DNA from: Balanoglossus misakiensis
Lineage: Eukaryota > Animalia > Hemichordata
NCBI GenBank assembly: GCA_040954595.2
Contig: CM082593.2
Coordinates: 7,476,043-7,540,042 of the forward strand
DNA: 64,000 nt
Reading direction: 5' to 3'
This document shows, piece after piece, positions 219-55,000 of the stretch. Position numbers and translations under genes: made by a program. Within the stretch, counting starts at the first letter, position 1. Each line of letters opens with the position of its first letter. The notes under the pieces were generated by a model. It had not been told where the DNA came from, ran no database searches, and saw nothing but the letters and a program-made list of their open reading frames with translations.

Positions 219-1322
219 TTTCAAATCAGGTGGTCGATCCAGATTCGGAACACAAAAAATAATTTGACAGCTAGTGCAAAGTATTGCCCTGCAGTCGAAA
301 GACAGAGTGAGGCCCGGGCAAACATTCGGTGCGTGGATTTCAACCACAGAGGATACAATCTATACTCCTTCCACACAGATAAGATAAGACAGTTCAAAAT
401 CTTAAGATTTAGTTCAGAAGCATTGAAGTTTTATGCTAACTAGCCGTAACTTTACAAACAATTATTTTGTTATCTGTTTCAGGATAAGGAACATCTGATC
501 TGATTCGTATTGAAAGGTGAGATTATTTAAACTGTGTCCTTTTTACATTGTACTTGTACTAAAAATACAGTTCACCAGGGAGTACACCAAGAAGGAGTTG
601 ACTGAAATTTCTCATAAATTCTTTGAAAAATACTCAATACTCAATATAAACTTACAAACGTATATTGTCTTAAAATACTCTATGCAAGGTTATGATATCT
701 GTGGGCGGAGGGATACATATTGACATTTTGCGCCCAATTTTAAACTGGCCACTTCACCCATGCTGTCACCGCGTATGTATCAAAAGCAAAGCCGTTGTCG
801 CTTTGTAACCATGGCAACTCTCCCAACGCATAGTGTCCCAGGCTGTAATATAGTCGCAGTATCTGGGTATGGATGGAGAGGGGGGGGGGGGGGGTGTTCA
901 ATTCACAATATCCAAAGTCCATGTTATTAGGTAATGTGTTTTATTGTCACAAAAATAGACTAATCCGCTTGAGCTATCTGTAACAGTTACATTCCGTAAC
1001 CTTCTTTTTAGATAGTTCCTAAAATAGGCTTATTCATTAAGCTATCGTCTAACGGATTTATATGCAGTCAGCTGTATCTTTTTCACCCTGGATAACTCTA
1101 CTATCAGGTTAGGTCAGAACAATGGGTATAAGACGAAGCATTGTATAGATATAAGTATTGATATTTTATTGTACTGCGTCATCATTAAGCAAATCATATA
1201 TAAAAAGTATTCTCACGAAATTGGGTTTCAAACAAAGTAAGTTCACATATCTGTATGTAGAACAGCTTAGAAGAAACGTTTAAAAGACTGAGAAAGACGG
1301 ATATAGAGACAGACACATAGGT

Positions 1323-1496
1323 AGTTTATAAAACTTACACGTGTATCGTTACAAAAACGTAACTTACGTTGTATGACCCTGAACGCTACTGGCTTTTGCA
1401 ACACGATCGATCATGATGGATTCATCATATCAAAGTGCGAGAACTTTCAACGAAACATACAGGGTCATATAATAGAATCGAGCGCAATACTTGCGC
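1323..1496 (-). promoter_or_regulatory. Conserved structured 3'UTR module of IL-17 gene 1
   Basis: mRNA sense: GCGCAAGUAUUGCGC (1482-1496); stem 1460-1469/1372-1381; GUUAC-GUUUUU-GUAAC (1348-1363); AGUUU-UAU-AAACU (1323-1335). Confidence 0.8.
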
Positions 1497-1865
1497 GGAT
1501 ATTTTCAAAATAGTAACTTTTGACAAACTTTGTCTAGAAAATAAATATGAACGAACGCTACTTGAAAGGAAAACTTTCAAAAATAAATATAAATAAATAA
1601 ACATATTAGTATGGCTTAATTTACGGACGGAGTTCCATAATTATAAAGCGTAGTGCTACTGAAAGTTTTTTAAACTATTTAAAAGTTAAAAAAAATATGT
1701 TGTATGTTTTAAATATTCCTATATAAAGTTCACAGTTTATGCGAATGCAAAATTGCTTCTATTATTTAAAATAAATATGAAAATGTACTTTTTACTCGGT
1801 TTCCGACTGAATTTGCGGACAGTATTTTTTATCCTACGTATATTTCAAAACCTTAAATTGCAAAT

Positions 1866-2723
1866 TTAAACTCTTTCTCTCCCGCAAGTACAAGCCACTG
1901 CCAGCTTCACTGTGGTCGGTTCGTAGACATAAAACCCGTCAGAGTCACAAGCGCTGGTTTTCACTAAGACTGTCAGGTCAGCCGTGGTTATCTTCTCACA
2001 CCGCCATATTGGATGGTGGTCGCTGTTTTCCAGGAGATCCGTGATGCAGTTCGGACAATCGTAGCACTCGGCTTCAACCAGGGTTTGTGGGTAGCGGTCG
2101 GTATCTGTGTTTTCAACGTGGTAGTAAGGGCAGGTCGATCTGATTTCCAAAGGGGCGTCTGAACCGTAGGAAACCGGGCAGGTGGTCGATGAGGGCGGGC
2201 TGTAGGACCCAGGAGTGGTGGCAAACGAAAGAACATTTGGCGTGTACTGGTTCAGCTGGTCTTGTAAAGCGTCCTCGCTCGGCTGTTGGCAGTTGATTGG
2301 GTTACCATGGATACCACTCATGCTCGAAATGCCCAAAACGATGGCAATCTGGAAAAGATGTGCATTTGTCAGACGTTAACAAATGTTCGTGAACTACATG
2401 TGACAAAGGAAAATAACGCATGGCCAAAAGTCACAATTCTTGTTAAACTCTGCGCCTCTTCTAGTTTCATACAAAGCTTGACTTATTTTACTTGGCTAGC
2501 AACCCGTTGCTACGGTTATATACGAAGTCTCGCGAGATCTCGTAACGACTGGAAAATCATCTCTTGTGTTTATATCAATGATAGTGACTTGTTATACATT
2601 CAGTATTGCGTTATCCATAGATTTGTCAACTGAGCGAATGTATGTGATATTTCCTATAAAGACAACCTGTTGCGTGTGCTGGTCTTATAATATACTTACA
2701 AAGAATCCGTAAGCGCAGTCCAT
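1866..2723 (-). CDS. IL17: IL-17-like cytokine, gene 1 (exon 1 2700-2723 MDCAYGFF; exon 2 1866-2348; 168 aa)
   Basis: RSTCPYY..D.DRYPQTLVEAEC..C..C and C-terminal VACTC match the IL-17 cystine-knot signature (RSxxPW..DxxRYP..AxC..VGCTC). Hydrophobic signal peptide. gtaagt donor and ttttccag acceptor, phase 0. Confidence 0.88.
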
Positions 2724-3079
2724 GATTTTTTTTTAAAAAGATTCAAAGTATCTTAGAACAGTCAGGGAGGTGTCTGGTGATCGAGTGGTCTGTCTGGAAA
2801 CTCACTGTTTGAATTTTTGACATCGATGCTTCCAATTAAATATACTTTTCAGACGGATAATGTTAGATGATGATGTCATCTTTGATTTGCAGGGAAAGCG
2901 TGTATTTATTTCTTGTTTTAATGCAATCGTGGCCATTAATGAGGTATCAAGTACAGTCTATATTTAGAAAATTAGTAAATCTCAGGAAAGTGGTGATTTG
3001 AATATTATCTGTATGAGACAGAAGACACGTCTTGTGTAATTCATTTCCTATCGGTTTATAAATGTACCCAGATACCAGG

Positions 3080-3089
3080 GGGAAATCCC
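3080..3089. promoter_or_regulatory. NF-kB consensus site upstream of gene 1
   Basis: GGGAAATCCC ~360 bp upstream of the ATG; the identical decamer lies at an equivalent position upstream of gene 2. Confidence 0.55.
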
Positions 3090-3370: not shown

Positions 3371-4659
3371 CTGAGGGGTTTAGGGCGCATGAATGGAGGC
3401 AATATTGTATTTTTGACAAAGTGCAGACACAAAGCCGAGAACACCGGGGATTGATAAGGTGGACAGTGACGTTTTGTCATTGACTGGTTTTGTCACGATC
3501 CGAGAAATCAGCGCCGATTGCAGTTGGTTCGACGGCACTGTAGGACTGAAACGTGACCGTGGCACTATTGTAAATCTTGAACCAATAATCCAGGAAGTAT
3601 TTGGAAGTATTTTTCAATAAGCGATACTTCAAGAAGAACAAAGATGTCGTACTCTATACATTCATACGTACGACTCGTTTTGTATTGGCCAAGGCTATAC
3701 ACGACGTTATACAGGGTGTCTATGCGTCCAGCAAGTGTTGTTGTGAATACACTCCCTTAGTAGCCGGTCAAACAGTGACTAGTGAATAGCTGTAACCTTC
3801 CTTTTAATAGAGGAATAACGAAGTTACTTTTGAGAGAGCTCAGTAACTGTTGTCAAATAAAACTCATGAGAAACTGCACATGAAATGTGTTCATAGTACA
3901 ATACCTGTACATCGTACATCTAACGTGTACACGTATACATGAATTTACTGCTGTGGAAGACAAAGGTATCATCTACATTTTACATCTACCTGCACTTTGT
4001 CACAGGAAAGTAAACTGCATGTCAGAGATTGCAACGCGATGTTGTTGTTTACTGGTCCAAAATATGTCATATCACATAAATTCTTGAGAAGCAAACTTGA
4101 TGTGAATTATGCCTCAATTTCAATGAATATTTGATATTTGTCAACTTGGACTTTCATGGTCGTTATTTTGCTTCGTGTTGATTTTGATATGTGTCAGCGA
4201 AACAGGAATTAGTTTGCTTTAATATCGCTCTCTCTCTCTCTCTCTCTTACCAGTCAACTTACGCTCACATCGACTTTTTTTGTAACAAGTTTATTGTATA
4301 ACAAAAATAAAAGCATTAACTTATAAAAAGTTTGGGTAGCTGTACCCTTACAAACGTTATTATAGAAAATAGAAAAGTGCATTATGTATTCTTAATTTTC
4401 CAGCACCAAAGGCTGTGTATTTTACTGTCGTAAAATGTCGCAAAACATAAAAGTAGTTAAGTACCAATGGAAAACTTCATTACATGTGCTTAAAATATTG
4501 TATGGCCGGATATGAAAAGACTTTAATTATTTTGCAAGACTTAAGTTACTTCGAAACTTTACACTTCTTAAAATAAACTGGAAAACATTTTTTAAATATG
4601 TGTGTACATAGTATTTTGATTAAAATAGTATATCCACGTGCAAACAGCGAAGGCTTAAC

Positions 4660-4840
4660 AAGTTTATAAAACTTACACAGCGTTACTAAAACGTAACTGA
4701 CGATACATGACCATAAAGTTTTTTTAACGCGGTACACGTCAACCTGATTGAAACTTTGAGATATAACACCATTGTCCCACCAAGCTGAACGAAAATTGAA
4801 ACGCGAATGGTCATAGTAATATAGAACGCAATACTTGCGT
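4660..4840 (-). promoter_or_regulatory. Conserved structured 3'UTR module of IL-17 gene 2
   Basis: ACGCAAGUAUUGCGU (4826-4840); AUGACCAU/AUGGUCAU stem (4807-4814/4707-4714); GUUAC-GUUUUA-GUAAC (4682-4697); AAGUUU-UAU-AAACUU (4660-4674). Confidence 0.8.
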
Positions 4841-5177
4841 GGGAATCAGAAAAAAATGTAAACTTACACTGAAATAAACTTCCATGTTCTTAAAGTATGG
4901 TATGGCCGGAATAATCGAAATCAAGGTTAAACCTTCAGAAAGTGATGAATATGTAGCATGTTGGGAAACACTTCCACTTAAAAATTCAAATGCAGCGAAT
5001 GTAAACTTTGTTTACGAATTAATATGTTTCTCTATAAGTTAGTTCGATGTGTGAATAGAAATGGTCACGGTTCTCGACATAAAGAATAAAAAAATATATA
5101 ACTGTACTTTGCGTCCAATTTCGGTTAAATAAACACACAATACATTTCTAGATCTTAAATGTTTGGCTTTGAGACAT

Positions 5178-6049
5178 TTAAACTCTTTCTCTTCCACAAG
5201 TACAAGCCACTGCCAGTTTCACTGTGGTCGGTTCGTAGACATAAAACCCGTCAGAGTCACAAGCGCTGGTTTTCACTAAGACTGTCAGGTCAGCCGTGGT
5301 TATCTTCTCACACCGCCATATTGGATGGTGGTCGCTGTTTTCCAGGAGATCCGTGATGCAGTTTTGACAATCGTAGCACTCGGCTTCAACCAGGGTTTGT
5401 GGGTAGCGGTCGGTGTCTGTGTTTTCAACGTGGTAGTAAGGGCAGGTCGATCTGATTTCCAAGGGGGCGCCTGAACCATACGAAATTGGGCAGGTGGTCA
5501 ATGAGGGCGGGCTGTAGGACCCAGGAGTGGTGGCATACGAAAGAACATTTGGCGTGTACTGGTTCAGCTGGTCTTGTAAAGCGTCCTCGCTCGGCTGTTG
5601 ACAGTTGATTGGGTTACCATGGATACCACTGATACACCAGATGCACAAGACGGTAACAGCCTGGAAAAGTAGCATAAATGGGGGGTTAAAAGAGAACAAT
5701 TTGTTTGAACTCAGACAGCTACCGTAATTAACAACAACTAACAACCTAAGACCAGTAGACCTATCTTTCTCACGTTCGTCTCCTTCGGTGTGTATGTGAA
5801 CTGTGGGCGTCTGCAAATGACATCATTTTGATCATTGATATCAAGCGCTTTACGAAGTACTGTATTAGCAGTCTGTGGTATATACTATTATGATTGTGAT
5901 AGGTAAATGACTTCCACCACTTTTAATTGGCAAATTTATGTTATAATTGCCAATCAGTGAAATGCCCCAGAGGTCGGTGTGTATTTGCCGTGCTTTTGGC
6001 TGTTCCCGGGTAAAGTTATACTTACCAAAAGTCCGTAAGCAAAATCCAT
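5178..6049 (-). CDS. IL17: IL-17-like cytokine, gene 2 (exon 1 6026-6049 MDFAYGLL; exon 2 5178-5660; 168 aa)
   Basis: Near-identical mature region to gene 1. Exon 1 is homologous to gene 1 exon 1. Canonical GT-AG, phase 0. Confidence 0.88.
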
Positions 6050-6398: not shown

Positions 6399-6408
6399 GG
6401 GAAATCCC
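6399..6408. promoter_or_regulatory. NF-kB consensus site upstream of gene 2
   Basis: GGGAAATCCC ~350 bp upstream of the ATG. Confidence 0.55.
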
Positions 6409-9042: not shown

Positions 9043-9217
9043 TAAGTTTATAAAACTTACATCGACGTTACTTAAACGTAACTGACTTAATATGATCCCA
9101 AATCTAGCAGTTTGTTTGGAACACGGTGGAATTTACGTGTCTTTCCACGAAGCAATTGTACTTTCAAACGAAGCAGATTGGATCATATACAGTAAATTTG
9201 AACGCAATACTTGCGTT
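9043..9217 (-). promoter_or_regulatory. Conserved structured 3'UTR module of IL-17 gene 3
   Basis: AACGCAAGUAUUGCGUU (9201-9217); AUAUGAUCC/GGAUCAUAU (9180-9188/9090-9098); GUUAC-GUUUAA-GUAAC (9067-9082); UAAGUUU-UAU-AAACUUA (9043-9059). Confidence 0.8.
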
Positions 9218-9408
9218 GGTATTGTCAAAGTATTAAAAAATACATACAAAATGAATAAATAAAACAATAAATATTTAAGTTAGGGTATAAGATAGAAATA
9301 AACAGGTAAATAGTTTGCAATACTTCTCATCAGTCTCGTAAATTGATAATGTGGTCGTGGCTAAACTTGTGAACGATGACATTTTGGTTTTCTTGTATTA
9401 GAAAGGCT

Positions 9409-10131
9409 TTAAACTCTTTCTCTCCCGCAAGTACACGCCACTGCCAGTTTCACTGTGGTCGGTTCGTAGACATAAAACCCGTCAGAGTCACAAGCGCTGG
9501 TTTTCACTAAGACTGTCAGGTCAGCCGTGGTTATCTTCTCACACCGCCATATTGGATGGTGGTCGCTGCTTTCCAGGAGATCCGTGATGCAGTTCTGACA
9601 ATCGTAGCACTCGGCTTCAACCAGGGTTTGTGGGTAGCGGTCAGTGTCTTTGTTTTCAACGTGGTAGTAAGGGCAGGTCGATCTGATTTCCAAAGGGGCG
9701 CCTGAACCGTAGGAAACCGGGCAGGTGGTCGATGAGGGCGGGCTGTAGGACCCAGGAGTGGTGGCATACGAAAGAACATTTGGCGTGTACTGGTTCAGCT
9801 GGTCTTGTAAAGCGTCCTCGCTCGGCTGTTGGCAGTTGACTGGGTTACCATGGATACTGCCGATAACAGAAATGAGGACGATAGCTGCAACCTGTAGAGA
9901 GACAAATTTCATGAGTAAATCGAGATAGTATACAAAAACTCAATGGGTATCATTTGTGACATTTCGCAAACTAGTTTTTAGTGCAACGCAAGGCGATCTG
10001 GATTGTCAGATACTAGCGACAATGTTAAGTAACCTGTTTGAAAGAAACGCATTGTATGATATACAATTTCGCAATCTGTTATAAGTTATGTCGAAAATCT
10101 AACTTACTGAAATTCTGTAAATAAAATTCAT
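9409..10131 (-). CDS. IL17: IL-17-like cytokine, gene 3 (exon 1 10108-10131 MNFIYRIS; exon 2 9409-9891; 168 aa)
   Basis: IL-17 signature. gtaagt donor and ctctacag acceptor. TATATATA at 10231-10238, ~100 bp upstream of the ATG. Confidence 0.88.
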
Positions 10132-13772: not shown

Positions 13773-14703
13773 ATGGAATTTTTGTACCGATCATCAGTAA
13801 GTCATAATTACCGGCTAATGCTAAATGTTAACGCTTCTTGTGTTTTTGTGTGTGAGAGAGTGTGTTGTGGATTGGCCGGTTTAGTATGTTTCGGCCAATC
13901 TCAAACTCTGCGTTAAAATCTAGAACCTATAACAAGAATGTATGTCTTTCGTGGAAAACACTGGAAAAGGGAATTAAGTTCATTCAGTTTTACTTGCCGT
14001 TAAATCAGCTATAGTTTCCAGAACAGGACCACTAACTTGTCAGAAACAGAATCATAATTGAGCTGGCAATATAGTTTAATGCATCTGTGACAGTCTATTT
14101 TGTCTCAAATACCGAAGACATCTTCTGTTTTGATTGTTAGCGTCATGAGGATAGGTTTATATCTTTTAACATTTACACAAGTCACCTCATTATTAACAAA
14201 AAGAATTGTTCTGTCTACAGGTTGCAGCTATCTTCCTCATTTCTGTTATCGACAGTATCCATGGTAACCCAATCAACTGCCAACAGCCGAGCGAGGATGC
14301 TTTACAAGAGCAGCTGAACCAGTACACGCCAAATGTTCTTTCGTATGCCACCACTCCTGGGTCCTACAGCCCGCCCTCATCGACCACCTGCCCAATTTCG
14401 TATGGTTCAGGCGCCCCCTTGGAAATCAGATCGACCTGCCCTTACTACCACGTTGAAAACACAGACACCGACCGCTACCCACAAACCCTGGTTGAAGCCG
14501 AGTGCTACGATTGTCCGAACTGCATCACGGATCTCCTGGAAAGCAGCGACCACCATCCAATATGGCGGTGTGAGAAGATAACCACGGCTGACCTGACAGT
14601 CTTAGTGAAAACCAGCGCTTGTGACTCTGACGGGTTTTATGTCTACGAACCGACCACAGTGAAGCTGGCAGTGGCTTGTACTTGCGGGAGAGAAAGAGTT
14701 TAA
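13773..14703 (+). CDS. IL17: IL-17-like cytokine, gene 4 (exon 1 13773-13796 MEFLYRSS; exon 2 14221-14703; 168 aa)
   Basis: IL-17 signature. aaacATGG start, gtaagt donor, gtctacag acceptor. TATATAA at 13678-13684; AATAAA at 15308-15313. Confidence 0.88.
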
Positions 14704-14970: not shown

Positions 14971-15070
14971 AATGTAATGTTCGTAGGTAGAATCGCATTT
15001 TGATGTCGAAATTAAGTTTTTTATGTATTAAGTTTTTAGAAATATTAATATTGTTATTTTGTCAATCCAC

Positions 15071-15203
15071 GCGCAAGTATTGCGTAAATATTGCCATTTG
15101 ATTCTAGCCGAATGACATTTACTGGTTAAACCAAAAAAGTGTTCGTCCAGGGTCATGGAGTGTCAGTTACGTTTTAGTGACATTTATGTCAGTTTTAAAA
15201 ACT
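15071..15203 (+). promoter_or_regulatory. Conserved structured 3'UTR module of IL-17 gene 4
   Basis: GCGCAAGUAUUGCGU (15071-15085); AUGAC..GUCAU (15112-15116/15152-15156); GUUAC-GUUUUA-GUGAC (15166-15181); AGUUU-UAA-AAACU (15191-15203). The module is inverted together with the gene. Confidence 0.8.
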
Positions 15204-15384
15204 CAATTTGCAGTTACACTCTTTGAGAGCTTTCCGATAAGTGTTAAGAAGTTTATATTTTTTGAAACCATTTCTAGTGAAATACATTATGAACTTGTTT
15301 TTATTTAAATAAACTTAAGAAAAGATACTATACCTATTGAAAATTTTTGTTCATTTTATTAAGATTACGTCATATGACAAAAGT

Positions 15385-36027: not shown

Positions 36028-36105
36028 ATACATAACTTCAAATATTTTATTGCGTAGAAATTTAAGGCGCGACATTGTAATTTATTTTGCTTATGTTATC
36101 TGTAC

Positions 36106-36249
36106 AGTTTTTAAAACTTACGAAGATAGATGTCACGAAAACGTAACTGACAATGTATGACCCAGGCAGTACATTTATGTCGACCAAGCGATCGAATAAT
36201 TCATTTACTATTGAGTCATATATATAAACTTGAACGCATTACTTGCGTT
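36106..36249 (-). promoter_or_regulatory. Conserved structured 3'UTR module of IL-17 gene 5
   Basis: AACGCA-AGUAA-UGCGUU (36233-36249); UAUGACUCA/UGGGUCAUA (36212-36220/36156-36164); GUUAC-GUUUUC-GUGAC (36132-36147); AGUUU-UAA-AAACU (36106-36118). Confidence 0.8.
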
Positions 36250-36514
36250 GGAGTCATCAAAAAGTGTAATGTTTAAGTTTAACAGTGCAAATAGAGCGTT
36301 TGAAGATACTTTGCTATAGTAGAATGCAAGTTTTGATGATATAGAAAAACATAAATATTGAATTTATGTATTTTTGTATTCTCACTTCACATATCTGTAT
36401 ATCTTGTATGTTCCTGAGGCTTGAAAATGCAATTAGTATATAAGCTTTTTTCTGTTTATATGACAGTTCTGAAAATATTCACTCTATGTCTTTCTATCCA
36501 ATCAATGTTAACTT

Positions 36515-37837
36515 TTACACTCGCTCTCGTCCACAGGTACAAGCCACTGCCAGTTTCACTGTGGTAGGTTCGTAGACATAAAACCCGTCAGAGTCACAAG
36601 CGCTGGTTTTCACTAAGACGGTCAGGTCAGCCGTGGTTATCTTCTCACACCGCCATATTGGATGGAAGTCGGTGCTTTCTATCAGATCAGCAACGCAGTT
36701 CTGGCAGCTGTAGCACTCGGCTTCTACCAGGGTCGGTGGGTATCGCTCCGTGTCCGTGTTTTCCACTCTGTAGAACGGGCAAGTTGTTCGGATCTCCAAG
36801 GGGGCGCCCTGGCCGTAAGAAACCGGGCAGGTGGTCGATGAGGGCGCGCTGTATGAGCCGGGCGTTGCAGCGAACGAGAGGGCGTTTGGCACGTGCTGTT
36901 TCAACTGTGCGCGCAGGGCATCCGCGCTCGGTTGTAGGCAGTTCACCGGGTTGCCATGGATACCAATGATGTTAGAGATGCCAATAACGACAATCTGTAA
37001 AATAAAAACAATATGTGTATTTGAATTGTAACCCTGAAAAAGTGTATATTTGAAAATTAACTCTAAACATACATCATTACATGTTGACAGGCTAATTTAA
37101 ATAATTTGGTTCGCTCATAAAACGCCCTATAGGTTTAAGTCTGGCTGGGTTCAAGGGTTGATGATGATTCTTATCAATTTGCGCGTATATTAATACGATA
37201 GCATAATTTATAGACGTACCATAGATTACGTCACACGCTTCTTGTTTGCCGAGTTTCAACGATTAGAATACATGAATTATTGTTACACATCCTTGAACAA
37301 CTTCAAACAGGAACGAAAATGTCAAAAAGATAGAGACTGTCCTATATCTTGAAGTACGCGTCTCGAAAATCGTAGTCTTTGACGACGTTTCCTCATAATT
37401 TGCTCAAAGAAGCTTTAGATTATTTTCTCTGAGAATGAGAATTAAAAATAGGGGAGCCAAATTGACATAAATTTGAAATGGTGGCCAATCTCTGCGTTAA
37501 CTCTATACAGAAAAACTACAAGTGGTGTTTTTATGAAACCATGTTTTCTACTGTGATTTCAAAAAGACTAGTACTCCTCACACACTTTGATATAGCAAAG
37601 AATTGAAAGGTTTGGAGAACTATAGTTTTTAGCCTGCTGGTTGTAATGATTTCGATCAAGAAAATTTAGCTAATAATACAGGGAATATAAATAATTAAAA
37701 TAGTATAAAATTTACGGCTACTTTTCCTCTAAGACCCAGATTAATTGTGTAAACTTTTCTGTGGATTTCGTCATGATTTCTTATTAACAGGAACGTTTGA
37801 TACTCACCAAGGATAAAATTCTGCTTGCAAACTTCAT
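36515..37837 (-). CDS. IL17: IL-17-like cytokine, gene 5 (exon 1 37808-37837 MKFASRILSL; exon 2 36515-36994; 169 aa)
   Basis: More diverged paralog with all 10 mature Cys. gtgagt donor and ttttacag acceptor. TATATAAA at 37934-37941. Confidence 0.88.
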
Positions 37838-39595: not shown

Positions 39596-39793
39596 AAGTT
39601 TATGAAACTTACATTGATGTTACGAAAACGCAACCACCACGCACATTATGACCAATAACCGACGAAAATGTCGGTCACATTTGACTAGGCGGGCCTTGTA
39701 TGTATACCTGTGGTTGAATAATTCCAAATCGAAAACACACACTTCGTTTCGTGCCGCCTGGGTCATATAAACAGTGAGTGCAATACTTGCACT
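39596..39793 (-). promoter_or_regulatory. Conserved structured 3'UTR module of IL-17 gene 6
   Basis: AGUGCAAGUAUUGCACU (39777-39793); UAUGACC/GGUCAUA (39761-39767/39647-39653); GUUGC-GUUUUC-GUAAC (39619-39634); AAGUUU-CAU-AAACUU (39596-39610). Confidence 0.8.
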
Positions 39794-40378
39794 TTGCTCA
39801 ATATAAAGGTTGTATATAATGTTTCTGTCGCAAAAATAAATATATTGCGGATATCGCGAACGATCTTCCCTTGGAAACATGCGCGCAGAAGTTGACGAGC
39901 ATGCGCAGTTACATGACTGCTCTGCTCTTTGTAGTACTCTATAAGGTTCTTGCATTCTTTGTGGAATCGACTTTTATAAAAAAAAGTAAATAAAATGTAC
40001 TCCTATGATAATGAGATATGTTACAGATGTATCGTCTTCAGGATCGACATTGTACTCTTGTTGTATGAAAACTCATTATTATAAGTTAAATATACATAAA
40101 TATTATCAAAGGTACTTGGTGATTTGCTGTAATGAACTTTGTGCAAGGCGTCACGGTATTTTGCGGTGTTCTTTTGTCGCACGTGTAATGTTGCAAGATT
40201 GCGCAGGAAGGGCGGTGACTTGTGTACTTCATAGCGGAAAATGTTCAGACGACAGTTACTGTACCATGTGGCCTACATCAAGCGTAAATGACGTCATTTT
40301 GCCTATAAATAAAACTTTTAGGATATTCGCCCAGCTTTGCAATATTTTTCCGTTTATGTAAACTTTGTACAACTTCAT

Positions 40379-41458
40379 CTACACCCTTTCTCGTCCACAA
40401 GTACACGCCAATGCAAGTTTCACTGTGGTCGGTTCGTAGACATAAAACCCTTCGGAGTCACAGTCTTTGGTTTTCTCCAAAACTGTCAAGTCGCCCGTGG
40501 TTATCGTCTCACACCGCCATATTGGATGGTAGTCGCTGTGTTCGATGAGATCGGTGACGCACTTCCGGCAGTCGTAGCACTCGGCTTCAACCAGGGTTTG
40601 CGGGTAGCGGTCATCGTCTGTGTTTTCAACGTGGTAGTACGGACAGGTCGATCTGATTTCCAACGGAGCCCCCGAACCGTACGAGAGAGGGCAGGCGGTC
40701 GACGAGGGCGGGCTGTAGGTCCCCGCAGTGGCGGCGTAAGAGTGGGCATTCGGTGTGTATTGGTTCAACTGCGCGCGAAGAGCGTCCTGACTCGGCTGTT
40801 GGCACTTTGTTGGGTTGCCATGGATACCGACTATGCTACACATGATGGCAAACTGTAACGAAGAAGATAACAGCAAATATTACTACAAATTTCAGTCTTC
40901 ACATTAAAATATGTTTCCATGTACTGGGCGATCGAACGATTTGAATTTGCAAAATAAACCTGACGAAAACTTAGCAAACGTATAAATGTGAAGGTGATTT
41001 TTAGCTTTCTGTAAATGAGAGTACAGTATTTTTTGTTTCTCATCGTAAGGCTTATGACAAGTTTGTCATCTGGTAGGAAAATGGACATCTTATAGACGTT
41101 GGAATTACATGTACACCAATCAATCCAAAAAGGACAACAATAATAATCATGGAAAAAATAACCCAGCTCGGATGCACTGAGCTGTTGAGTGGCCATAGAT
41201 TTTCAAAGAGGGAACTTGAGTCTTTAAAATATTTCCACCACGTCCGCTTTCACGTTTTAAACTGGTGTGGAAGCATCTGTTAATCAGATTTCGAAAATTC
41301 GAACATGTGTCCGATGTACGTAGCCTTAGAGCCTTACTTTCCTAATTTTTCTGACATCTTCAACAAATGTTCGCTTTTTTCAGGCTGAAAGGGGGGATCT
41401 CATCGGCGCATGCGTGCACTGAGCTCTAACTCACCAGACAACTGTACGTGATTTCCAT
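40379..41458 (-). CDS. IL17: IL-17-like cytokine, gene 6 (exon 1 41435-41458 MEITYSCL; exon 2 40379-40852; 165 aa)
   Basis: IL-17 signature. gtgagt donor and cgttacag acceptor, phase 0. Confidence 0.87.
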
Positions 41459-43275: not shown

Positions 43276-43325
43276 AAGTTTATAAAACTTACTGTGACGT
43301 TACAGAACGTAACTGACTAAGTATG
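43276..43325 (-). promoter_or_regulatory. Truncated 3'UTR module of IL-17 gene 7 (last two hairpins only)
   Basis: GUUAC-GUUCU-GUAAC (43299-43313); AAGUUU-UAU-AAACUU (43276-43290). Confidence 0.72.
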
Positions 43326-43834: not shown

Positions 43835-44884
43835 TTAAACTCTTTCTCTTCCACAAGTACAAGCCGCTGCCAGTTTCACTGTGGTCGGTTCGTAGACATA
43901 AAACCCGTCAGAGTCACAAGCGCTGGTTTTTACTAAGACTGTCAGGTCAGCCGTGGTTATCTTCTCACACCGCCACATTGGATGGTGGTCGCTGTTTTCC
44001 AGGAGATCCGTGATGCAGTTCGGACAATCGTAGCACTCGGCTTCAACCAGGGTCGGTGGGTAGCGGTCGGTGTCTGTGTTTTCAACGTGGTAGTAAGGGC
44101 AGGTCGATCTGATTTCCAAGGGGGCGCCTGGCCCGTAGGAAACCGGACATGCAGTCGATGAGGGCGGGCTGTAGGAACCAGGTATACTGGCATGCGAGAG
44201 AGCGTTCGGTGTGTATTGGCTTAACTGCTCTTGTAAAGCATCTTGACTCGGTTGTTGACAGTTCATTGGGTTCCCATGGATACCAATCACGCTGACAACT
44301 ACCATTGCTACAATCTATAAGAGACAGAATCATACATCAGTTAATTTCCTAGTAACACGGGAGCCTTCTTCAGTACGAGGGGATGCGGTCTGCAGGCTAT
44401 AAAAACGCCGACGAAATTCTCGATGTGAACAAAATGAACCAAATTTAATGCCCCTTTCCCATGTTTTCAGCAACTTATAGCATTGTACAGGAGAAACTGT
44501 AGTGGTAAATTAAGAAGCGTCTCAGCACGGCAACAATTAAAGTAGTTATCATGGGAAATAATCATTGTCTGACTCTCTAGAGTCTTAGCCGATGACAACT
44601 GCATACCTGGTCCGTCGTTATAGTCTAAATTTGCATTTGTTACTTTCATCGCCAAATATGGCAAAAAAGCCATAAAGGTAAAAGCAAAGTAATGTGATAT
44701 AATGTACGCAATAGTGTGAAATCCCCTTCTGTAAGAAATGGCCCTCCCAAATGAAAGAATGTTGCTTAGATGTGACTGGGTACTGCGACAGAAAAAAGTA
44801 CAGCAACATTATAGTGCAGTTAATTCTAATATCCTGAAGAACTACCAACTCCGAACTCACCATTACACTATGCAGAGAGTCCAT
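43835..44884 (-). CDS. IL17: IL-17-like cytokine, gene 7 (exon 1 44861-44884 MDSLHSVM; exon 2 43835-44314; 167 aa)
   Basis: IL-17 signature. gtgagt donor and ctcttatag acceptor, phase 0. kB-like GGACTTCCCC at 45171-45180 and GGGGCTTCCCC at 45933-45943 upstream. Confidence 0.87.
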
Positions 44885-48013: not shown

Positions 48014-51000
48014 CGGAGAGATAAATTATAATAATTAATAATTTTTAATGAGAAATTATCATCGCATCGACTGAAAATAAGACTTTATCTGCTAGAATAC
48101 TTACAGCCTACAAAGTCAAAATAAGTCAGTGTTCTAGCTGACAATTACGCCACCTGCACCACCCTCCACCTCCCCGCGATGTGGGGGTTTCTGTTCAGTC
48201 TATTACCACTCAAACCAGATAAGGTTAATATATCATACCAGGTCCCACTAGTCATCGCAGAATTTATATCATTGCGAGATATTATTTTTCCCGCGCAGAC
48301 CAGAAAGACGGCAGCTTTTCGCGCTCCCCAGCATCTAGTCTGGACTGCAGTACGTTGTCTCAGTTTTGTGGTACCTGGTAGCCGCACGCACGCTTTTTTG
48401 GTCACATGAGTCACCTTGAAAATAAAATATGCGGGTGGTATTTATTTTTGTAGACTAATATAGGGAGAGCATTGTTTAAAATCATTTGTGTTACGGTGTG
48501 TGTTGGGTGGCCATTGTGGAGGTACATGTACTACAGCCAGCTCGCCTGCACCGTTTAGTTTTCCCGGGGAACTGCCAAAAACCGGAGGATTGTAGGCCCG
48601 GGCTGTTTAGGGATAGGCGACGTTACACTATTCGACAAAAAACGGTAAATATTTTCTGCTTATTTGGCTTCCGTGATCCGTTGCAACATATTGAAGAATT
48701 GCGAGGCCGAGGTACGTTGTGGTAAACATGCACAAGAAGAATATCTCTTCAAAAAATATCCACAAGCGTGTTTACCCCCATGTCGTCACGTTGTTTGTCT
48801 ACATACATTTGGATATATCACATGAATATCAGTACAGTACTATACCAAAACCAAAAGTTGTCCTACCGTACACACGCACACACTGTCACAAAGATCCCAG
48901 GCTGAAAGCACCAATCTCTGTCCGTCAGACTAGCAAAATCTACATACCAATTGTGACCATTCGGAGTATTGCCGTGTTGATCTTCGGTACAATATGAATT
49001 AAAGTTGTGTAGCAGCACTCTTTGATCAACAGTTGAAATTACAGCATGAGCTTTCGGGAACATGTAGTCCCCTTCTTCAGATGCACTCGTGGAATGAACA
49101 GTGAATCAGAGAATCATGGGGTATTCAAAGTAGAAAATATGTGCAGGACCAGGTGCCTCGGAAAACAAAAGAAGGGGTGGGTGTGAAAATTGAACAATGG
49201 AAATGTTAATGGGACTGAAAATGTGTAAATGGGGTAGTAGACAGTTATTTGTAGTGTGACCAAATGTGGTAATGGTACATTAGTGAAATGAGCTGGCGTC
49301 GTTTAGAGGGGCCATTCTATTCGATAGAGTGATCAGGCCGTTATATTCAGAAAAGGGGGTCAGAAAATTCATTAGCTTCATCAAAACAAGCTGGCCACTA
49401 TACGGGCATGCCATATTTAACCTGTGTCAACGTGTATAGAGACCAGCTGCAATGCACCATACATGGATTTTCTCTTTCCTAGCGTCGATATTTTAGAACA
49501 ACGCATGGCCCTTCTAAATCTAGAATTATCGTTCGGTTGTGTGTCATATCTTATGCAGTGGATGGGTGAAGCGACCGGGGCAGGTTTCAACGTGCTTGTG
49601 GTTCGCACACCATCCATATTATAGACACATTATTTTTACATAAGCGGTTTTTCAGTTATTATTAACATGTAAATATCGCTTGGATTCCAATATGCATCGT
49701 TGCATAAACGGATTAATCATGATCAATTACAGCCGATTTCAAAACAGCATGAAGTTTCATTGTGACCGGAGAGGTAAAATGAATGCATTCTCCGACAACA
49801 AGAAAGTGTACCTCATGTGACACGTGTTGATTTTGCAATACTTGAACTAACTCTACGACCATTGTCCTGATTAAGAAAGATATTCATGATTTTGAGAAAC
49901 GCTTTATTCAGAATTTCACGATTCGGTAACTTTTCTAGCGATACGTTAATTGGTATATTGTCAAGCATCGTGTCAAATAATACGACTGAATGGTAAACTT
50001 TTAACCGCAATTGTTTTTCTAAGAATCGCTGTCAGAGAGAACATTAATTGGTTGTTTTGTAAAGTTTGAAAATCCACGAGACGAAGTATGCCTCTATCAA
50101 AAACCAAACGTAGGATTTGGTTTTTGCTAGACGAGAAACCTCTCACGTTGACGCGATGAAACTCAACGCAATTGTGGAATCGGTAGGCCTGCCTACCAAT
50201 ATTCGTGGTGCATTCTAAAACACGTGAGCAGTAACATTTCCCAGATTATGGATAGATGGTGTCCATTATTACAAAGGGAATCAATATTAAACTTTAAATA
50301 TATTACGACCATATGGAATCCCAACTACAAGTACAGATGTCTAACTTCTAGATTATGCATGCCAAGGTAAGGCGTGTGGGTCATGAAATTGACCCAGATT
50401 GTTTAATTTGTGACATGACAATCTGCGTGACGTTTGAAAATTGTCGGAATAATGGAACCCGCCCTCAAGCGACTTGTGCATGAGATTGGCGAGATTCTAA
50501 GCGCACTTCCTACATGTATACCTGAAATCTAGGCTGGACACATGGGTTTTTGCGGGTTTGCTGCTTTGGAGTGATGCTTAAAACATACTAGTAGTTACTA
50601 ACAGTGGTGTTTATGTCACACACAAAAGTTAGCCGATAGTGTCAGGGGAAAAACTGGGAAAGTACGATTCAATCGTATCGCGAAACAACTTGGGCAAATC
50701 ATCATGTGTTCCCGGTTTTAAAAAACAAGTTGCCCTTCCCATAATTTATGACACATATTTCAAGCCTGCAGTTTTACAAATAGGCCTAAACACAAAATTC
50801 GAAGGACAGAAAGTGCGTGTAGTTTACTTGAACTTGGAGGTGTGAGAGAGCACTGCGGCCAAGGCCATTTTCCCTTCGGTTGCCATTGGCAACGGTGAGA
50901 CCCGAACTCGCGATGTCTTACGTGTACGCACCATTGTATACTTCCAGTGTGAACTTTTGTATCTCAACGGTGTCGACATGTCATGGCCCAGTGGACGCAC

Positions 51001-51553
51001 TCTCTAAGAAAACAACCGACACGACAAATGTAAAGTGGAAATGCCAGCTCATATTTCACACCAGTCAGGGTGACTGAAGTGATGATCAGCGCTACCTACG
51101 GTGGAAATCGCGACGCCTTTTAATTAACACAGGCCAGGCAATGCGCATCACTGTCCCTATTCATGTATATGAAAGTTCCCACGCACTACGCATGTTCATT
51201 GTTATGTTAATCATATTCATCTGAAATATGACGGTAGGCGTAACTGTAGTGTTTTCATCACGATGCTTGATATTTTCCAGCCAGTCCGAACCGTTACACA
51301 TACGTGGATGAATCCGGACCGATAGGGAAGACATGAGGGTTAATGTTTAACCGCGGCTATCGGAAAAAAAACGTGTAGTCTGCGTTAAACATATTTAATC
51401 ACATACATGTATTGTATGTACGTACGCTCACCTTTCAACATGGCTGCTCGGGTGATAACAGTGATCAGGTGGTCGGCCTCTGTTTATCTCGACGAAAACT
51501 GATACTGCTGCTTGTTGTTGTTGTTGTCGCCGTCACGTGTGACATTGGCCAAG

Positions 51554-52038
51554 ATGATGAACGCCCTGTCCTCACCTGAGATCCGCGGCTCCGCTAGGTT
51601 TTCGTGGCCGCGGGCCGCGCCGCCGCCGAGAGCGCGCACGAAGCGGATGAGCGCTGGCCCCGCCACTGACGAGAAGCAGGCCGAGAGAGAAGTAACGCTG
51701 CAGGTTCAAAACGCCAACCCGCCCGCGGATGTATCGGTGCAGGCGTTCTACCTCACCTACATGGTGCACACGGCCAGGGCCATCCAACGGGCGATACTGC
51801 AGCGGATCAGCAAATCGGGCGCCGTCCCCAAAGTGAGGATGGTGCGAAGCGACCCCTCGCAGGACGCGGACAGCTTGTGGGCTGACATACTCTGCCAAAC
51901 CCTGGACAGCTACACCCATCTGGTTCACCAGTACGCCAACGGACAGCTCAAGCGCAAACTTGAAGGGGAATTGAAGAAATTCGATTACCGGGAAAAGTTG
52001 AATTTAATACTTCTGGGACACGAACACATCACCGTTAG
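51554..52038 (+). CDS. Probable first coding exon of a multi-exon gene; possible TRADD-N-like domain
   Basis: GC-rich ORF with GC3-biased codons in an AT-rich background. aagATGATG start with an upstream in-frame stop; ends at AG|gtaagt (phase 2). The domain call is recalled pattern similarity only. Confidence 0.65.
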
Positions 52039-55000
52039 GTAAGTCCCTAAACAGAAAAAAGATGGAGTCCCCGGCCACGTCTATTTGATTGTACGCTGCC
52101 AATACGTTCAAAAAGCAACTTACAATAGGCATTTGGGGTTTAGCCCTACAAACACCCCCTGCAAACAAAGCCCTGACTGTCGAGCAAATAAATGGGTCCT
52201 TGTTTTGTTGTTCGAGACCTCAAATAAACCCACTTTTCGTTTCTGAATATTTTCTCAAGGATGACAGAGCTGTTGACCTCAATTAAAACAATACCCGGCA
52301 GGGCATGATCATGTTTTGGGAGACGTCCGCGGGCTGTACCGCCTTCAGTTTATGCACCGCTATCTGCAAACGACATGACGTAATTCGATAATCTCGGATT
52401 GTCTGTACATGTCCACGCAGCATCGCCATCAAAACCTGCTATCGAAAACTATTGAAAATACTCAATGCTCTTAACTACTTAAGGGACATAAAATTCCTGA
52501 CGTCAATTTCCAGAAACGCACTTTTTTAAAATCAAAGATCCTACCGCCAAAGAGATTCGCGGGGAAATTTACCCAAATGTTTGTCTCACCAACTTACAGT
52601 CAATGTTTAATGACAAACGGTAGATGTGGGCAAAACATAAATAATCTGTAGTTTGGCGTGCTGTCAATACTAATACCTTCTCTGAAATGGTAGATGGTCG
52701 AACACTGAGGGGTCATGGGAAGGGATGCGAGCCCGCTTCGGTCCCGCCAAATTACTGCGATGAGATCTTTCAACCGAACGATTAACAAAGACAAAATCGA
52801 AGCCCTCTAATGGAACCAAAATTGCCCGTCACCATAAATTTCAGAGAAGAAAGGAAAAACAGGTCGTTCATGTCGGCCCGTTAATCTTTTAAACCCCACA
52901 CGACAATAGGGGTCCCAGTAATTGCGTTGAACTGCCATTAAAATCGGCTGGCTGTATAACGGTCCGATCACGTGACCGCCACCGTGAGTGAACATTTTGC
53001 AGGTGGTCCCATCAAACAAATTATCGAGTCAGAAACCCATTCCCTTTTTTTCCAATTGTCACATTATATCGGTAAACATTTCACACGAATCTTAATAGTC
53101 TCTGTTCTTGAACCACCTTGGAATGTATTACATGGTTTTGGTGATGACTTACTTCAGTATATATCGCTCTTAATAGAATGTTTGTTCATATGAAAAGCTA
53201 GGAATGGCAGCTGAAACAGCCGATAATAGAACATGGGGAAAAGACTGACTATAATGTAATAACGACGCATAAATGCTTCAGACCCAGGAGACTCAGAGCC
53301 ATTATGCACTGGAAGGTTGGCTTAGGGGTTGACCATTTGATATTCGGGAGGGGAGGGCTGGAAGATTCTTAAAAATGTTACCAGCCAACTGCGAAAAAAT
53401 GTTTGCCTTTGCAGTCCAACAGAAAAAATATTCAAGGGAGGCTGAACAAATTGCTGTGGCAAATCCTACGTCACAGTGGTATAAAAGGTTTTGTTTCCGA
53501 ACAGTTCCCCCGCCTCGCCACAACCAATATCAAATGGGTTGCCCCTAAGACGCACAAGCAGGATTTCGGCGATGTGTATAGAAAAGGGGAAATATTCTAA
53601 AAGCAGAGACAAACGGCAAACAAGGAGGCTGAGAACACAGGCAGAGCAAATATACGGCGTGGGGGCGTGGTCAAATTCGCGGACTATAAAACCAGACATT
53701 CCCACGAGGCCATTGCATTAACTTGTCACGATATTTGCCAAAACGATACCAAAATATTTACCACGTGAACTGCGCGTGAGTTCGGCTCTCCCCAAGTTTA
53801 CCTCGACGATGCTATCACGTATAGCCAATTATTAGACATAACATCATCTATTAGGAGTCGATAACCCACTTTTCGCTGATAATGGATCGTAACAGGTTAT
53901 CAACTCACAAGAATTGAGTACAAAAGGTTATTATTAGGCGTTGCTTAGTCTGAAATGATCTGAACCAAGGCCTCGGGGTACTTTTTTATGTCGTTGTCTT
54001 CATTTCATAGGATATCATTAAATTTTACACCGACTGCCTACAAACCACGCCTTTTAACAATATAAGCCGTGTCGATCGATAGTGACATGATCAAACCACA
54101 TATTGACTTATCGGTGTAGAAAACATCAGGCAAATTCAAATTCCAACTACAAAGCTATCAACAATAACCCATCACATCGTAGTGCCGATTGTTGGGTGCC
54201 TGAACATGCCTGGAAAATCATTTCTGGAATATGCACATTCTCTCTTCAGAAAAAAAAATTGCATATTGAACAAGAGGCCATTAGTTGCACTGGATACCGA
54301 ATACATGTATACACGTATCCCACTGTCCCATACGCAGCCCACGTCCCCCATACGCTGCCCATGGCCCCATACGCTGCCATACCACCCGCTTCTCGATATG
54401 TGCACGGGAGCGGTGACGTCATCGGTGCACGGGAGATGCTGAGTCAGCGCTCTTGTTAAAATATACGAGACCGATAACAAAACTGATGGAGGAATACTGT
54501 AAATTTCATATTATGATTATGATTTACACACTGTTGGTTGTTGTTGGCGGTATTGTGCGACAGGGCCAGGTGTGTCCCGGGTATGCATTTGAAAATGTGC
54601 CTTTTCATCATATAGCTGTCTTTCCCACCACAATGCAATGCTAGCCGCTCAATCGATTCATTACAGTATAATAACGCTTATACCAATTCCATTAATGTGT
54701 AATTGACACTAATTAGGGATGTCTTCCAATTACAAACGTCACATTAGCCCAGATAAAGGAACGGAATTGCGATGAGCTGGTTCATTATTATGTACTGCCC
54801 GTAGAAAACGAACGCGTGGTGACAGGCAAGCAAACGTGGCACTTTCAACTTAATCTTTGATGTATTGCATTGATGGCAGTTTGTTAGACCGATTGCATTA
54901 TTTATCACCAAAGTGCAGCCGCCATTTCTCTCTTTACATTATTTGATCTAAATGATTCAATAATCAATGAATAAAGTAATTTTGAAATTGAGTTGTATGG

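Follow-up and report, generated by a model that had tools for sequence, protein, structure and literature searches.

Seven IL-17 genes of the hemichordate Balanoglossus misakiensis are each followed, on the sense strand, by two adjacent RNA hairpins, C and D, whose loops resemble the two types of element recognised by Roquin, the alternative decay element (ADE) and the CDE. As judged by comparison with published binding data, the cassette to which these hairpins belong probably acts as a redundant Roquin/Regnase decay element behind the seven genes. The whole stretch of DNA that was analysed, 64 kb in length, is called the window below, and all positions refer to it. Published work cited by PMC number is represented by excerpts of the respective texts.

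The IL-17 locus

One small gene is present in the window as seven tandem paralogs; gene 4 is encoded on the plus strand and the other six are on the minus strand. The two paralogs that were scanned, genes 2 and 6, match the Pfam IL17 family (PF06083), for which the cut-off is 24 bits, with scores of 46.3 and 44.9 bits (E-values 5.7e-12 and 1.6e-11, respectively), and the other five are tied to these two by 76-97% identity. Among eight candidates a protein search gave two relatives, both from acorn worms: a Ptychodera flava protein described as interleukin-17-like (67% identical) and one from Glandiceps talaboti (57% identical). In metagenome contigs, a protein scan for related loci matched 55 stretches, none of which was confirmed, and a DNA pattern for the C-D cassette found no copy. 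Tandem IL-17 arrays are known in Saccoglossus and in sea urchins; the excerpts of the two texts (PMC8353272, PMC5457136) do not mention Roquin. The main coding exons, with putative 5′ ends, are as follows.

1866..2348, minus strand, gene 1
5178..5660, minus strand, gene 2 (stop codon included; 5′ end placed by an acceptor AG)
9409..9891, minus strand, gene 3
14221..14703, plus strand, gene 4
36515..36994, minus strand, gene 5
40379..40852, minus strand, gene 6
43835..44314, minus strand, gene 7

Over a core of 148 codons the proteins of genes 1-4 are 95.9-97.3% identical, that of gene 7 is 89-91% identical to these four, and those of genes 5 and 6 are 76-84% identical to the remaining paralogs. 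The initial annotation had described the proteins as nearly identical, which is accurate for genes 1-4 but too strong for genes 5, 6 and 7. The 444-nt coding core of genes 1-4 has 96.6-97.7% nucleotide identity, and directly 3′ of the stop codon only 6-9 of 30 bases agree (ungapped, four pairs examined). At the edges of the mature-domain cores (1866-2309, 5178-5621, 9409-9852 and 14260-14703) the signal-peptide codons and the UTRs diverge sharply. This sharp identity edge suggests gene conversion, and from the sequence pattern it is likely that the mature-domain exon of genes 1-4 has been homogenised in this way. In 17 of the 21 UTR pairs, similarity over the first 300 nt does not rise above the best of 30 shuffles. 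Short islands that are kept amid such diverged UTRs indicate selection and not passive similarity.

Other parts of the window also have recognisable features. The tail-to-tail genes 4 and 5 are separated by a 20-kb array (15647-35907) in which an 88-bp repeat occurs 229 times and after which comes an ACAT microsatellite; the array begins a few hundred bases past the predicted 3′ ends of the two genes. The motif GGGATTTCCC, which we take to be NF-κB-site-like, is found on the minus strand at 3079-3089 and at about 6399-6408, approximately 745 nt upstream of the main exon of genes 1 and 2. An open frame of 179 codons on the plus strand (51503-52042) has no Pfam match. Its language-model features resemble clusters of TRADD-like N-terminal domains with a score of 0.92 and a recognition score below threshold, and the TRADD-like label covers 23-46% of the members in these clusters. 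This frame is a possible exon of an immune-signalling gene adjoining the IL-17 array, and is given here as a lead.

Occurrence and sequence of hairpin C

In gene 2, whose sense strand is the minus strand, hairpin C has the sequence GUUAC-GUUUUA-GUAAC. The hairpin pattern has seven copies in both strands of the 64 kb, one behind each IL-17 paralog and always in sense orientation, and a covariance model built from the seven hairpins revealed no additional copy above 18 bits. Their positions and loops are listed here.

1348..1363, minus strand, gene 1: GUUUUU, in which a G-U pair is able to close a tetraloop
4682..4697, minus strand, gene 2: GUUUUA hexaloop on C-G with a 5-bp stem, strict ADE loop; open-hexaloop probability 0.96 in the whole predicted UTR
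9067..9082, minus strand, gene 3: GUUUAA, extended ADE consensus
15166..15181, plus strand, gene 4: GUUUUA, strict ADE loop; stem probability 0.18, with a competing fold predicted
36132..36147, minus strand, gene 5: GUUUUC, predicted 6-bp stem with a tetraloop
39619..39634, minus strand, gene 6: GUUUUC, tetraloop predicted
43299..43313, minus strand, gene 7: GUUCU pentaloop

Loop positions 1-3 (GUU) and the closing C-G pair are invariant. The most variable position is loop position 6, which is A in three genes, C in two, U in one and missing in one. The stem is strictly 5 bp in all seven genes, and the next position is a purine-purine mismatch in every case. A pattern count over the seven genes bears out the loops, the C-G closure and the stem variants (GUUAC/GUAAC, GUUAC/GUGAC and GUUGC/GUAAC) that the initial annotation had listed. 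The letters of its six-base loops are correct, but genes 5 and 6 fold to a UUUU tetraloop and the loop of gene 1 is mostly closed by G-U.

The frequency of such hairpins by chance was estimated with dinucleotide-shuffled UTRs. A strict ADE hairpin with a stem of at least 5 bp appeared in 21 of 4200 shuffled UTRs, and in 1 of the 4200 such a hairpin had a YRU hairpin no more than 45 nt behind it. A post hoc calculation from UTR composition gives a probability of 0.001 for a strict ADE loop and of 8.5e-5 for such a loop together with a YRU loop. Outside the IL-17 UTRs, a lone 6-bp hairpin with a GUUCUA loop (about 48125-48142, near 48131, plus strand) adjoins a 40-bp tandem repeat. It is probably a chance occurrence and shows the background rate of strict ADE-type hairpins in the non-satellite window.

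Evidence for RNA structure

RNAalifold analysis of the C-D alignment gave C and D as the sole consensus helices. In hairpin C all 35 of 35 stem cells pair. Three cells are altered, probably through two events; all three alterations are G-U pairs on the sense strand, and the three hairpins that carry them do not fold on the antisense strand. Two-sided covariation was looked for in C and D in the seven-gene alignment and was not found, and pairing of the two hairpins showed no excess over column shuffles (220 of 500 shuffles). Since C has no two-sided change and pairs at the level of the shuffles, its structural support is modest and leans on hairpin A and stem B, described below.

In the whole predicted UTR, the closing C-G pair has probabilities of 0.70, 0.96, 0.69, 0.18, 0.94, 1.0 and 0.30 in genes 1 to 7, respectively. 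When the hairpins are folded in isolation, loop positions 1 and 6 pair as G-C in genes 5 and 6 (0.98) and as G-U in gene 1 (0.75), and an open hexaloop is predicted with a probability of 1.0 in genes 2, 3 and 4, 0.24 in gene 1 and 0.02 in genes 5 and 6.

Neighbouring elements

The order of elements behind the IL-17 genes is hairpin A, the long stem B, hairpin C and hairpin D. Hairpin A was found in six of the seven genes and has in all six a GUA triloop, which is neither YRU nor AAU. Two-sided changes occur in two of its seven pairs. In a shuffle control, which relatedness alone can beat, 15 of 500 shuffles attained the covariation score of hairpin A. The copies of hairpin A are at the following positions.

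1480..1498, minus strand, gene 1
4824..4842, minus strand, gene 2: GUA triloop, non-YRU
9200..9218, minus strand, gene 3
15069..15087, plus strand, gene 4
36232..36250, minus strand, gene 5: closing pair broken
39776..39794, minus strand, gene 6: two-sided change from C-G to U-A

Stem B is a long-range stem, of which the arms in gene 2 are given here.

4807..4815, minus strand, 5′ arm
4706..4714, minus strand, 3′ arm

The two arms span 49-105 variable bases, and seven consecutive pairs are intact in all five genes in which both arms are present. In the anchored table one arm was not found in genes 4 and 7, and a search behind gene 7 for hairpin A and stem B found neither. The substitutions in stem B comprise one change of C-G to U-A (gene 3) and two wobble changes. 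In a shuffle test on genes 1-3 the stem was matched by 6 of 500 shuffles for gene 1, 84 of 500 for gene 2 and 44 of 500 for gene 3, which is significant for gene 1 only. A reading of stem B as a SECIS element was rejected because the AUGA in it forms canonical pairs and the exon is not interrupted by an in-frame stop. An Rfam search of positions 4200-5200, which cover gene 2 only, gave nothing meaningful; the one match, to a bacterial sRNA, had an E-value of 1.6 and scored 15 bits, where the gathering score is 50.

Hairpin D starts 8-13 nt 3′ of hairpin C in all seven genes. Its triloop is of the YRU type in five of them, with UAU in genes 1, 2, 3 and 7 and CAU in gene 6; the UAA of genes 4 and 5 does not fit. 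The stem has at least 6 bp in genes 2, 3, 6 and 7 and 5 bp in genes 1, 4 and 5, compared to 6-8 bp for the reference CDE stem. The closing-pair probability in the whole UTR ranges from 0.01 to 0.65, gene 4 having the value of 0.01. The copies of hairpin D are as follows.

1322..1336, minus strand, gene 1: UAU loop, 5 bp
4660..4674, minus strand, gene 2: CDE-type, UAU triloop, 6 bp and wobble pairs; closing-pair probability 0.55
9044..9058, minus strand, gene 3: UAU loop, 7 bp and a wobble pair
15190..15204, plus strand, gene 4: UAA loop, non-YRU
36105..36119, minus strand, gene 5: UAA loop, non-YRU
39596..39610, minus strand, gene 6: CDE-type, CAU loop
43276..43290, minus strand, gene 7: UAU loop

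An unpaired GUMA lies 5′ of hairpin C in six of the seven genes and 5′ of hairpin D in all seven, and it is conserved letter for letter, as are the stems. The two hairpins also share their base, both stems starting with GUU and finishing with AAC. This GUMA and GUU...AAC base, which resembles a splice donor, may be a duplicated unit or the site of a second protein. Genes 4 and 5 (15166-15204 and 36105-36147), with coding cores only 81% identical, have both the GUGAC stem variant and the UAA loop in common. The GUUUUC loop is common to genes 5 and 6, whereas gene 5 shares its stem variant with gene 4. Such a mosaic suggests exchange among the UTRs or repeated change.

Probable position in the 3′UTR

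Hairpin C lies 327-745 nt past the stop codon on the sense strand, upstream of the first poly(A) signal in all seven genes. AAUAAA and AUUAAA are absent from the 3673 nt that run from the stop codons to the ends of hairpin D in the seven genes. A mean of 9.96 such hexamers is expected in this sequence (1000 dinucleotide shuffles, none of which reached zero), and 22 are present on the opposite strand. In each gene a poly(A) signal first appears 19-184 nt 3′ of hairpin D; the candidate in gene 2, a sequence match, is listed here.

4522..4527, minus strand, AUUAAA, first poly(A)-signal-like hexamer past the cassette of gene 2

The absence of hexamers up to hairpin D and the presence of one soon after it make it most likely that the cassette lies inside the IL-17 mRNAs' 3′UTR, near its end. 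AUUUA pentamers occur upstream of the cassette, with 7, 5, 10, 6 and 3 copies in genes 1, 3, 4, 6 and 7, two in gene 2 and one in gene 5. These AU-rich clusters may offer a second, independent decay signal.

Comparison with Roquin binding preferences

The SELEX consensus of mouse Roquin contains CGUUUUAG, and the CGUUUUAG of hairpin C agrees with this core as given in the excerpts of PMC5603727. According to the same source a closing C-G pair gives threefold better binding by mouse Roquin than A-U, the G at loop position 1 is essential, and replacement of the last loop A of Ox40 by C produces a tetraloop with no detectable Roquin binding. For the ROQ domain, the excerpts of PMC11609897 describe U2 and U3 as invariant, position 4 as free, and U or C at position 5 as preferred over A. 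On the HOMEZ stem the dissociation constant is 6.0 nM for GUUUUA and 39.1 nM for GUUUAA, and reporter repression is weaker with A at position 5. In the same work, enriched hexaloops starting with G have A or G as the final base, CDE stems with tetra- or pentaloops showed no enrichment, and triloops were YRU or, weakly, AAU.

Tested against these preferences, the loop of hairpin C conforms to the strict GUUYUA consensus in two of seven genes (2 and 4) and to the extended consensus in one (gene 3), while four (genes 1, 5, 6 and 7) fall outside. The proposal of the initial annotation that hairpin C matches the ADE hexaloop is partly supported, by the strict loops of genes 2 and 4 and the extended one of gene 3. 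The likeness to an ADE is also stronger than that annotation stated, in view of the SELEX core, the nearby CDE-type hairpin D and the probable 3′UTR location. Positions 1-5 obey the ROQ preference in all seven genes, position 6 does not, and the changes that occur at position 4 (C) and position 5 (A) are of a kind tolerated by mouse ROQ. The off-consensus loops still have intact stems, and gene 5 has kept the entire cassette with no consensus Roquin loop. When C and D are taken together, at least one consensus loop is present in six of the seven genes, with both in gene 2 and neither in gene 5.

With its 5 bp in all seven genes, the stem of hairpin C is shorter than the 6-8 bp of the Roquin search consensus (PMC6294493, in which 5-bp CDEs showed lower activity). 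That rule comes from CDEs, and the Ox40 ADE has an upper stem of 4-5 bp with a bulge beneath (PMC11730611), so that the short stem lowers the case for ADE membership and does not exclude it. The letter-for-letter conservation of the stems and flanks exceeds what a Roquin that reads shape would need.

The suggestion that loop variants could tune Roquin affinity for each paralog has to be divided accordingly. It agrees with the values of 6 and 39 nM for GUUUUA and GUUUAA with the mouse protein (PMC11609897), but a GUUUUC loop that closes as a tetraloop, the change with which Ox40 loses binding, and the GUUCU pentaloop are predicted non-binders. These point to loss of the ADE in genes 5, 6 and 7 and not to tuning.

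Possible mechanism

In the explanation that we prefer, hairpin C with its hexaloop and the adjacent hairpin D with its triloop would be redundant Roquin sites, an ADE followed by a CDE, that speed the decay of the cytokine mRNA. Extrapolating from mammalian data, the ROQ domain would bind hairpin C in genes 2 and 3 and, if folding permits, in gene 4, and hairpin D in genes 1, 2, 3, 6 and 7. Two Roquin molecules could occupy C and D, as described for the Ox40 tandem of an ADE and a CDE (PMC9023295). Bound Roquin would then recruit deadenylation or decapping (PMC11609897). Regnase may also take part, as it does on nematode ets-4 (PMC9371910), and either hairpin A or the arm that stem B encloses could then be its helper element. 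The excerpts of PMC11172303 give a single rc3h gene for invertebrates, amphioxus and nematodes among them, and do not mention hemichordates. Repression is predicted to decrease in the order gene 2, gene 3, then genes 1, 4, 6 and 7, and finally gene 5.

The pattern of kept and lost consensus loops fits two redundant sites, one of which may decay. The loop differences would then most likely represent partial loss of one redundant site, with mRNA half-life altered as a by-product. Differences in half-life between the paralogs are plausible from the mammalian affinities. Of the four off-consensus C loops, three are found in genes 5, 6 and 7, which encode the divergent proteins and not the near-identical ones. 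Within one genome, tuning by selection would look the same as the decay of one site in a redundant pair.

A stronger form of the redundant-site explanation, which can hold beside it, is that all loop variants function as Roquin sites whose affinities were selected, giving near-identical proteins different half-lives. The near-identical genes 1-4 indeed carry GUUUUU, GUUUUA, GUUUAA and GUUUUA, their coding exons appear homogenised while the UTRs remain distinct, and mouse ROQ affinity differs 6.5-fold between GUUUUA and GUUUAA, with repression that tracks affinity (PMC11609897). We nevertheless consider this proposal doubtful, in view of the GUUUUC and GUUCU loops that are predicted not to bind and of a comparison that covers one genome, the scan of metagenome contigs for related loci having given no confirmed ortholog. 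Promoters, AUUUA counts (1 to 10 per UTR) and hairpin D vary among the paralogs as well, so loop C alone need not set half-life. In a version modelled on Ox40, the ADE-CDE pair would serve as a dial: conversion would keep the mature IL-17s near-identical, and single-base loop changes would grade the sites from two strong ones in gene 2 to none in gene 5, setting half-life for each copy. This version, too, is tentative and rather unlikely to be correct.

Alternatively, the cassette could be read mainly by another protein, a Regnase-type nuclease or a different one, through the GUMA-GUU...AAC module, with the ADE match in two of seven loops being secondary. The stem letters and unpaired flanks are constant while loop size and position 6 vary, hairpin A covaries despite its non-YRU loop, all four elements are retained in gene 5, where no Roquin loop fits the consensus, and in nematodes the stem-loop beside an ADE serves Regnase (PMC9371910). 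Such a reader would leave unexplained the invariant unpaired GUU, the ROQ-tolerated changes at positions 4 and 5 and the YRU loop of the neighbouring hairpin D in five of seven genes; we judge it improbable as the main function, and it would be compatible with Roquin binding as an extra layer. A very improbable option is that GUAAGU or GUCAGU acts as a 5′ splice-site-like sequence that binds U1 snRNP or opens a 3′UTR intron, controlling polyadenylation or nonsense-mediated decay, with the hairpins masking it. GUAAGU is present 5′ of D in six of seven genes, GUCAGU or GUAAGU is present 5′ of C in six of seven, the candidate exon-1 donors of genes 3 and 4 likewise read CA/GUAAGU (the slash marking the splice position), and a poly(A) signal is close behind. 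The splice-donor consensus has G at position -1, and G is found there in none of the 13 sites. Nor would this option account for hairpin A, stem B or the invariant bases of the loop. Finally, the hairpin motifs could form no RNA structure and instead be DNA palindromes bound by dimeric transcription factors as part of a downstream enhancer. Two-sided covariation is absent from C and D, as such sites would allow, and the GTTAC/GTAAC and TTGCG half-sites presumably resemble bZIP half-sites. We give this possibility hardly any credence, as substitutions preserve pairing on the sense strand only, stem B pairs over 49-105 variable bases with two-sided changes, and the avoidance of poly(A) signals upstream of the cassette is limited to the sense strand.

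Relation to known Roquin targets

Roquin ADE-CDE cassettes are already known, as is an invertebrate ADE in C. elegans. The closest likeness to the IL-17 cassette is found in mammalian Ox40 (Tnfrsf4), where a U-rich hexaloop on C-G with a short upper stem lies 5′ of a hairpin with a YRU triloop (PMC5603727, PMC9023295, PMC11730611), and both cassettes are located in a multi-element structured 3′UTR of an immune gene. The IL-17 cassette differs in that it belongs to a secreted cytokine of a hemichordate and is repeated over seven paralogs, that C has no conserved lower stem and that four of seven hexaloops are off consensus. The excerpts on Ox40 state no counterpart of hairpin A, of stem B or of the shared GUMA flanks. 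An independent origin of the two cassettes is more likely, and common ancestry is not claimed. In the tentative version with a dial, the common GUMA-GUU...AAC base would further suggest that the ADE and the CDE of the IL-17 genes arose by duplication of one hairpin.

In the 3′UTR of C. elegans ets-4 an ADE bound by RLE-1 is accompanied by a REGE-1 cleavage element (PMC9371910), the ADE loop being GUUGUA (PMC11609897). As in the IL-17 cassette, an invertebrate ADE here stands beside another stem-loop, which in ets-4 is required; the differences, as far as the excerpts describe them, are that ets-4 is a single transcription-factor gene and its neighbour a Regnase cleavage hairpin, whereas the present case concerns a cytokine family with a CDE-like neighbour. 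This nematode transcription-factor mRNA is the sole invertebrate ADE that we found in the literature excerpts (PMC9371910). The minimal response element of NFKBID has six cooperating stem-loops (PMC6145892, PMC11609897). By their description it is similar in that several hairpins cooperate, some of them off consensus, and a weak ADE-like loop works beside a strong CDE; it differs in the gene and in the number and order of hairpins.

No ADE or CDE on invertebrate IL-17 mRNAs was found among the literature matches listed, which cover subscription journals thinly. A search for papers on Roquin acting on vertebrate IL17A mRNA found none, and for this reason ancestral control of IL-17 is not claimed. 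A 2024 study of the Ox40 ADE reports, in the excerpts, high affinity for mammalian versions only, ties ADE evolution to advances of the immune system and states that no progenitor ADEs are known (PMC11730611).

Implications

The seven paralogs form a natural series of variants whose affinities are partly predicted by published data, which makes the proposals of Roquin binding and of tuning directly testable with short RNAs and reporters. If the redundant-site explanation is true, Roquin-type decay would target cytokine mRNAs directly in an animal that lacks adaptive immunity, far outside the vertebrates, and the two-site layout of an ADE followed by a CDE would have arisen independently.
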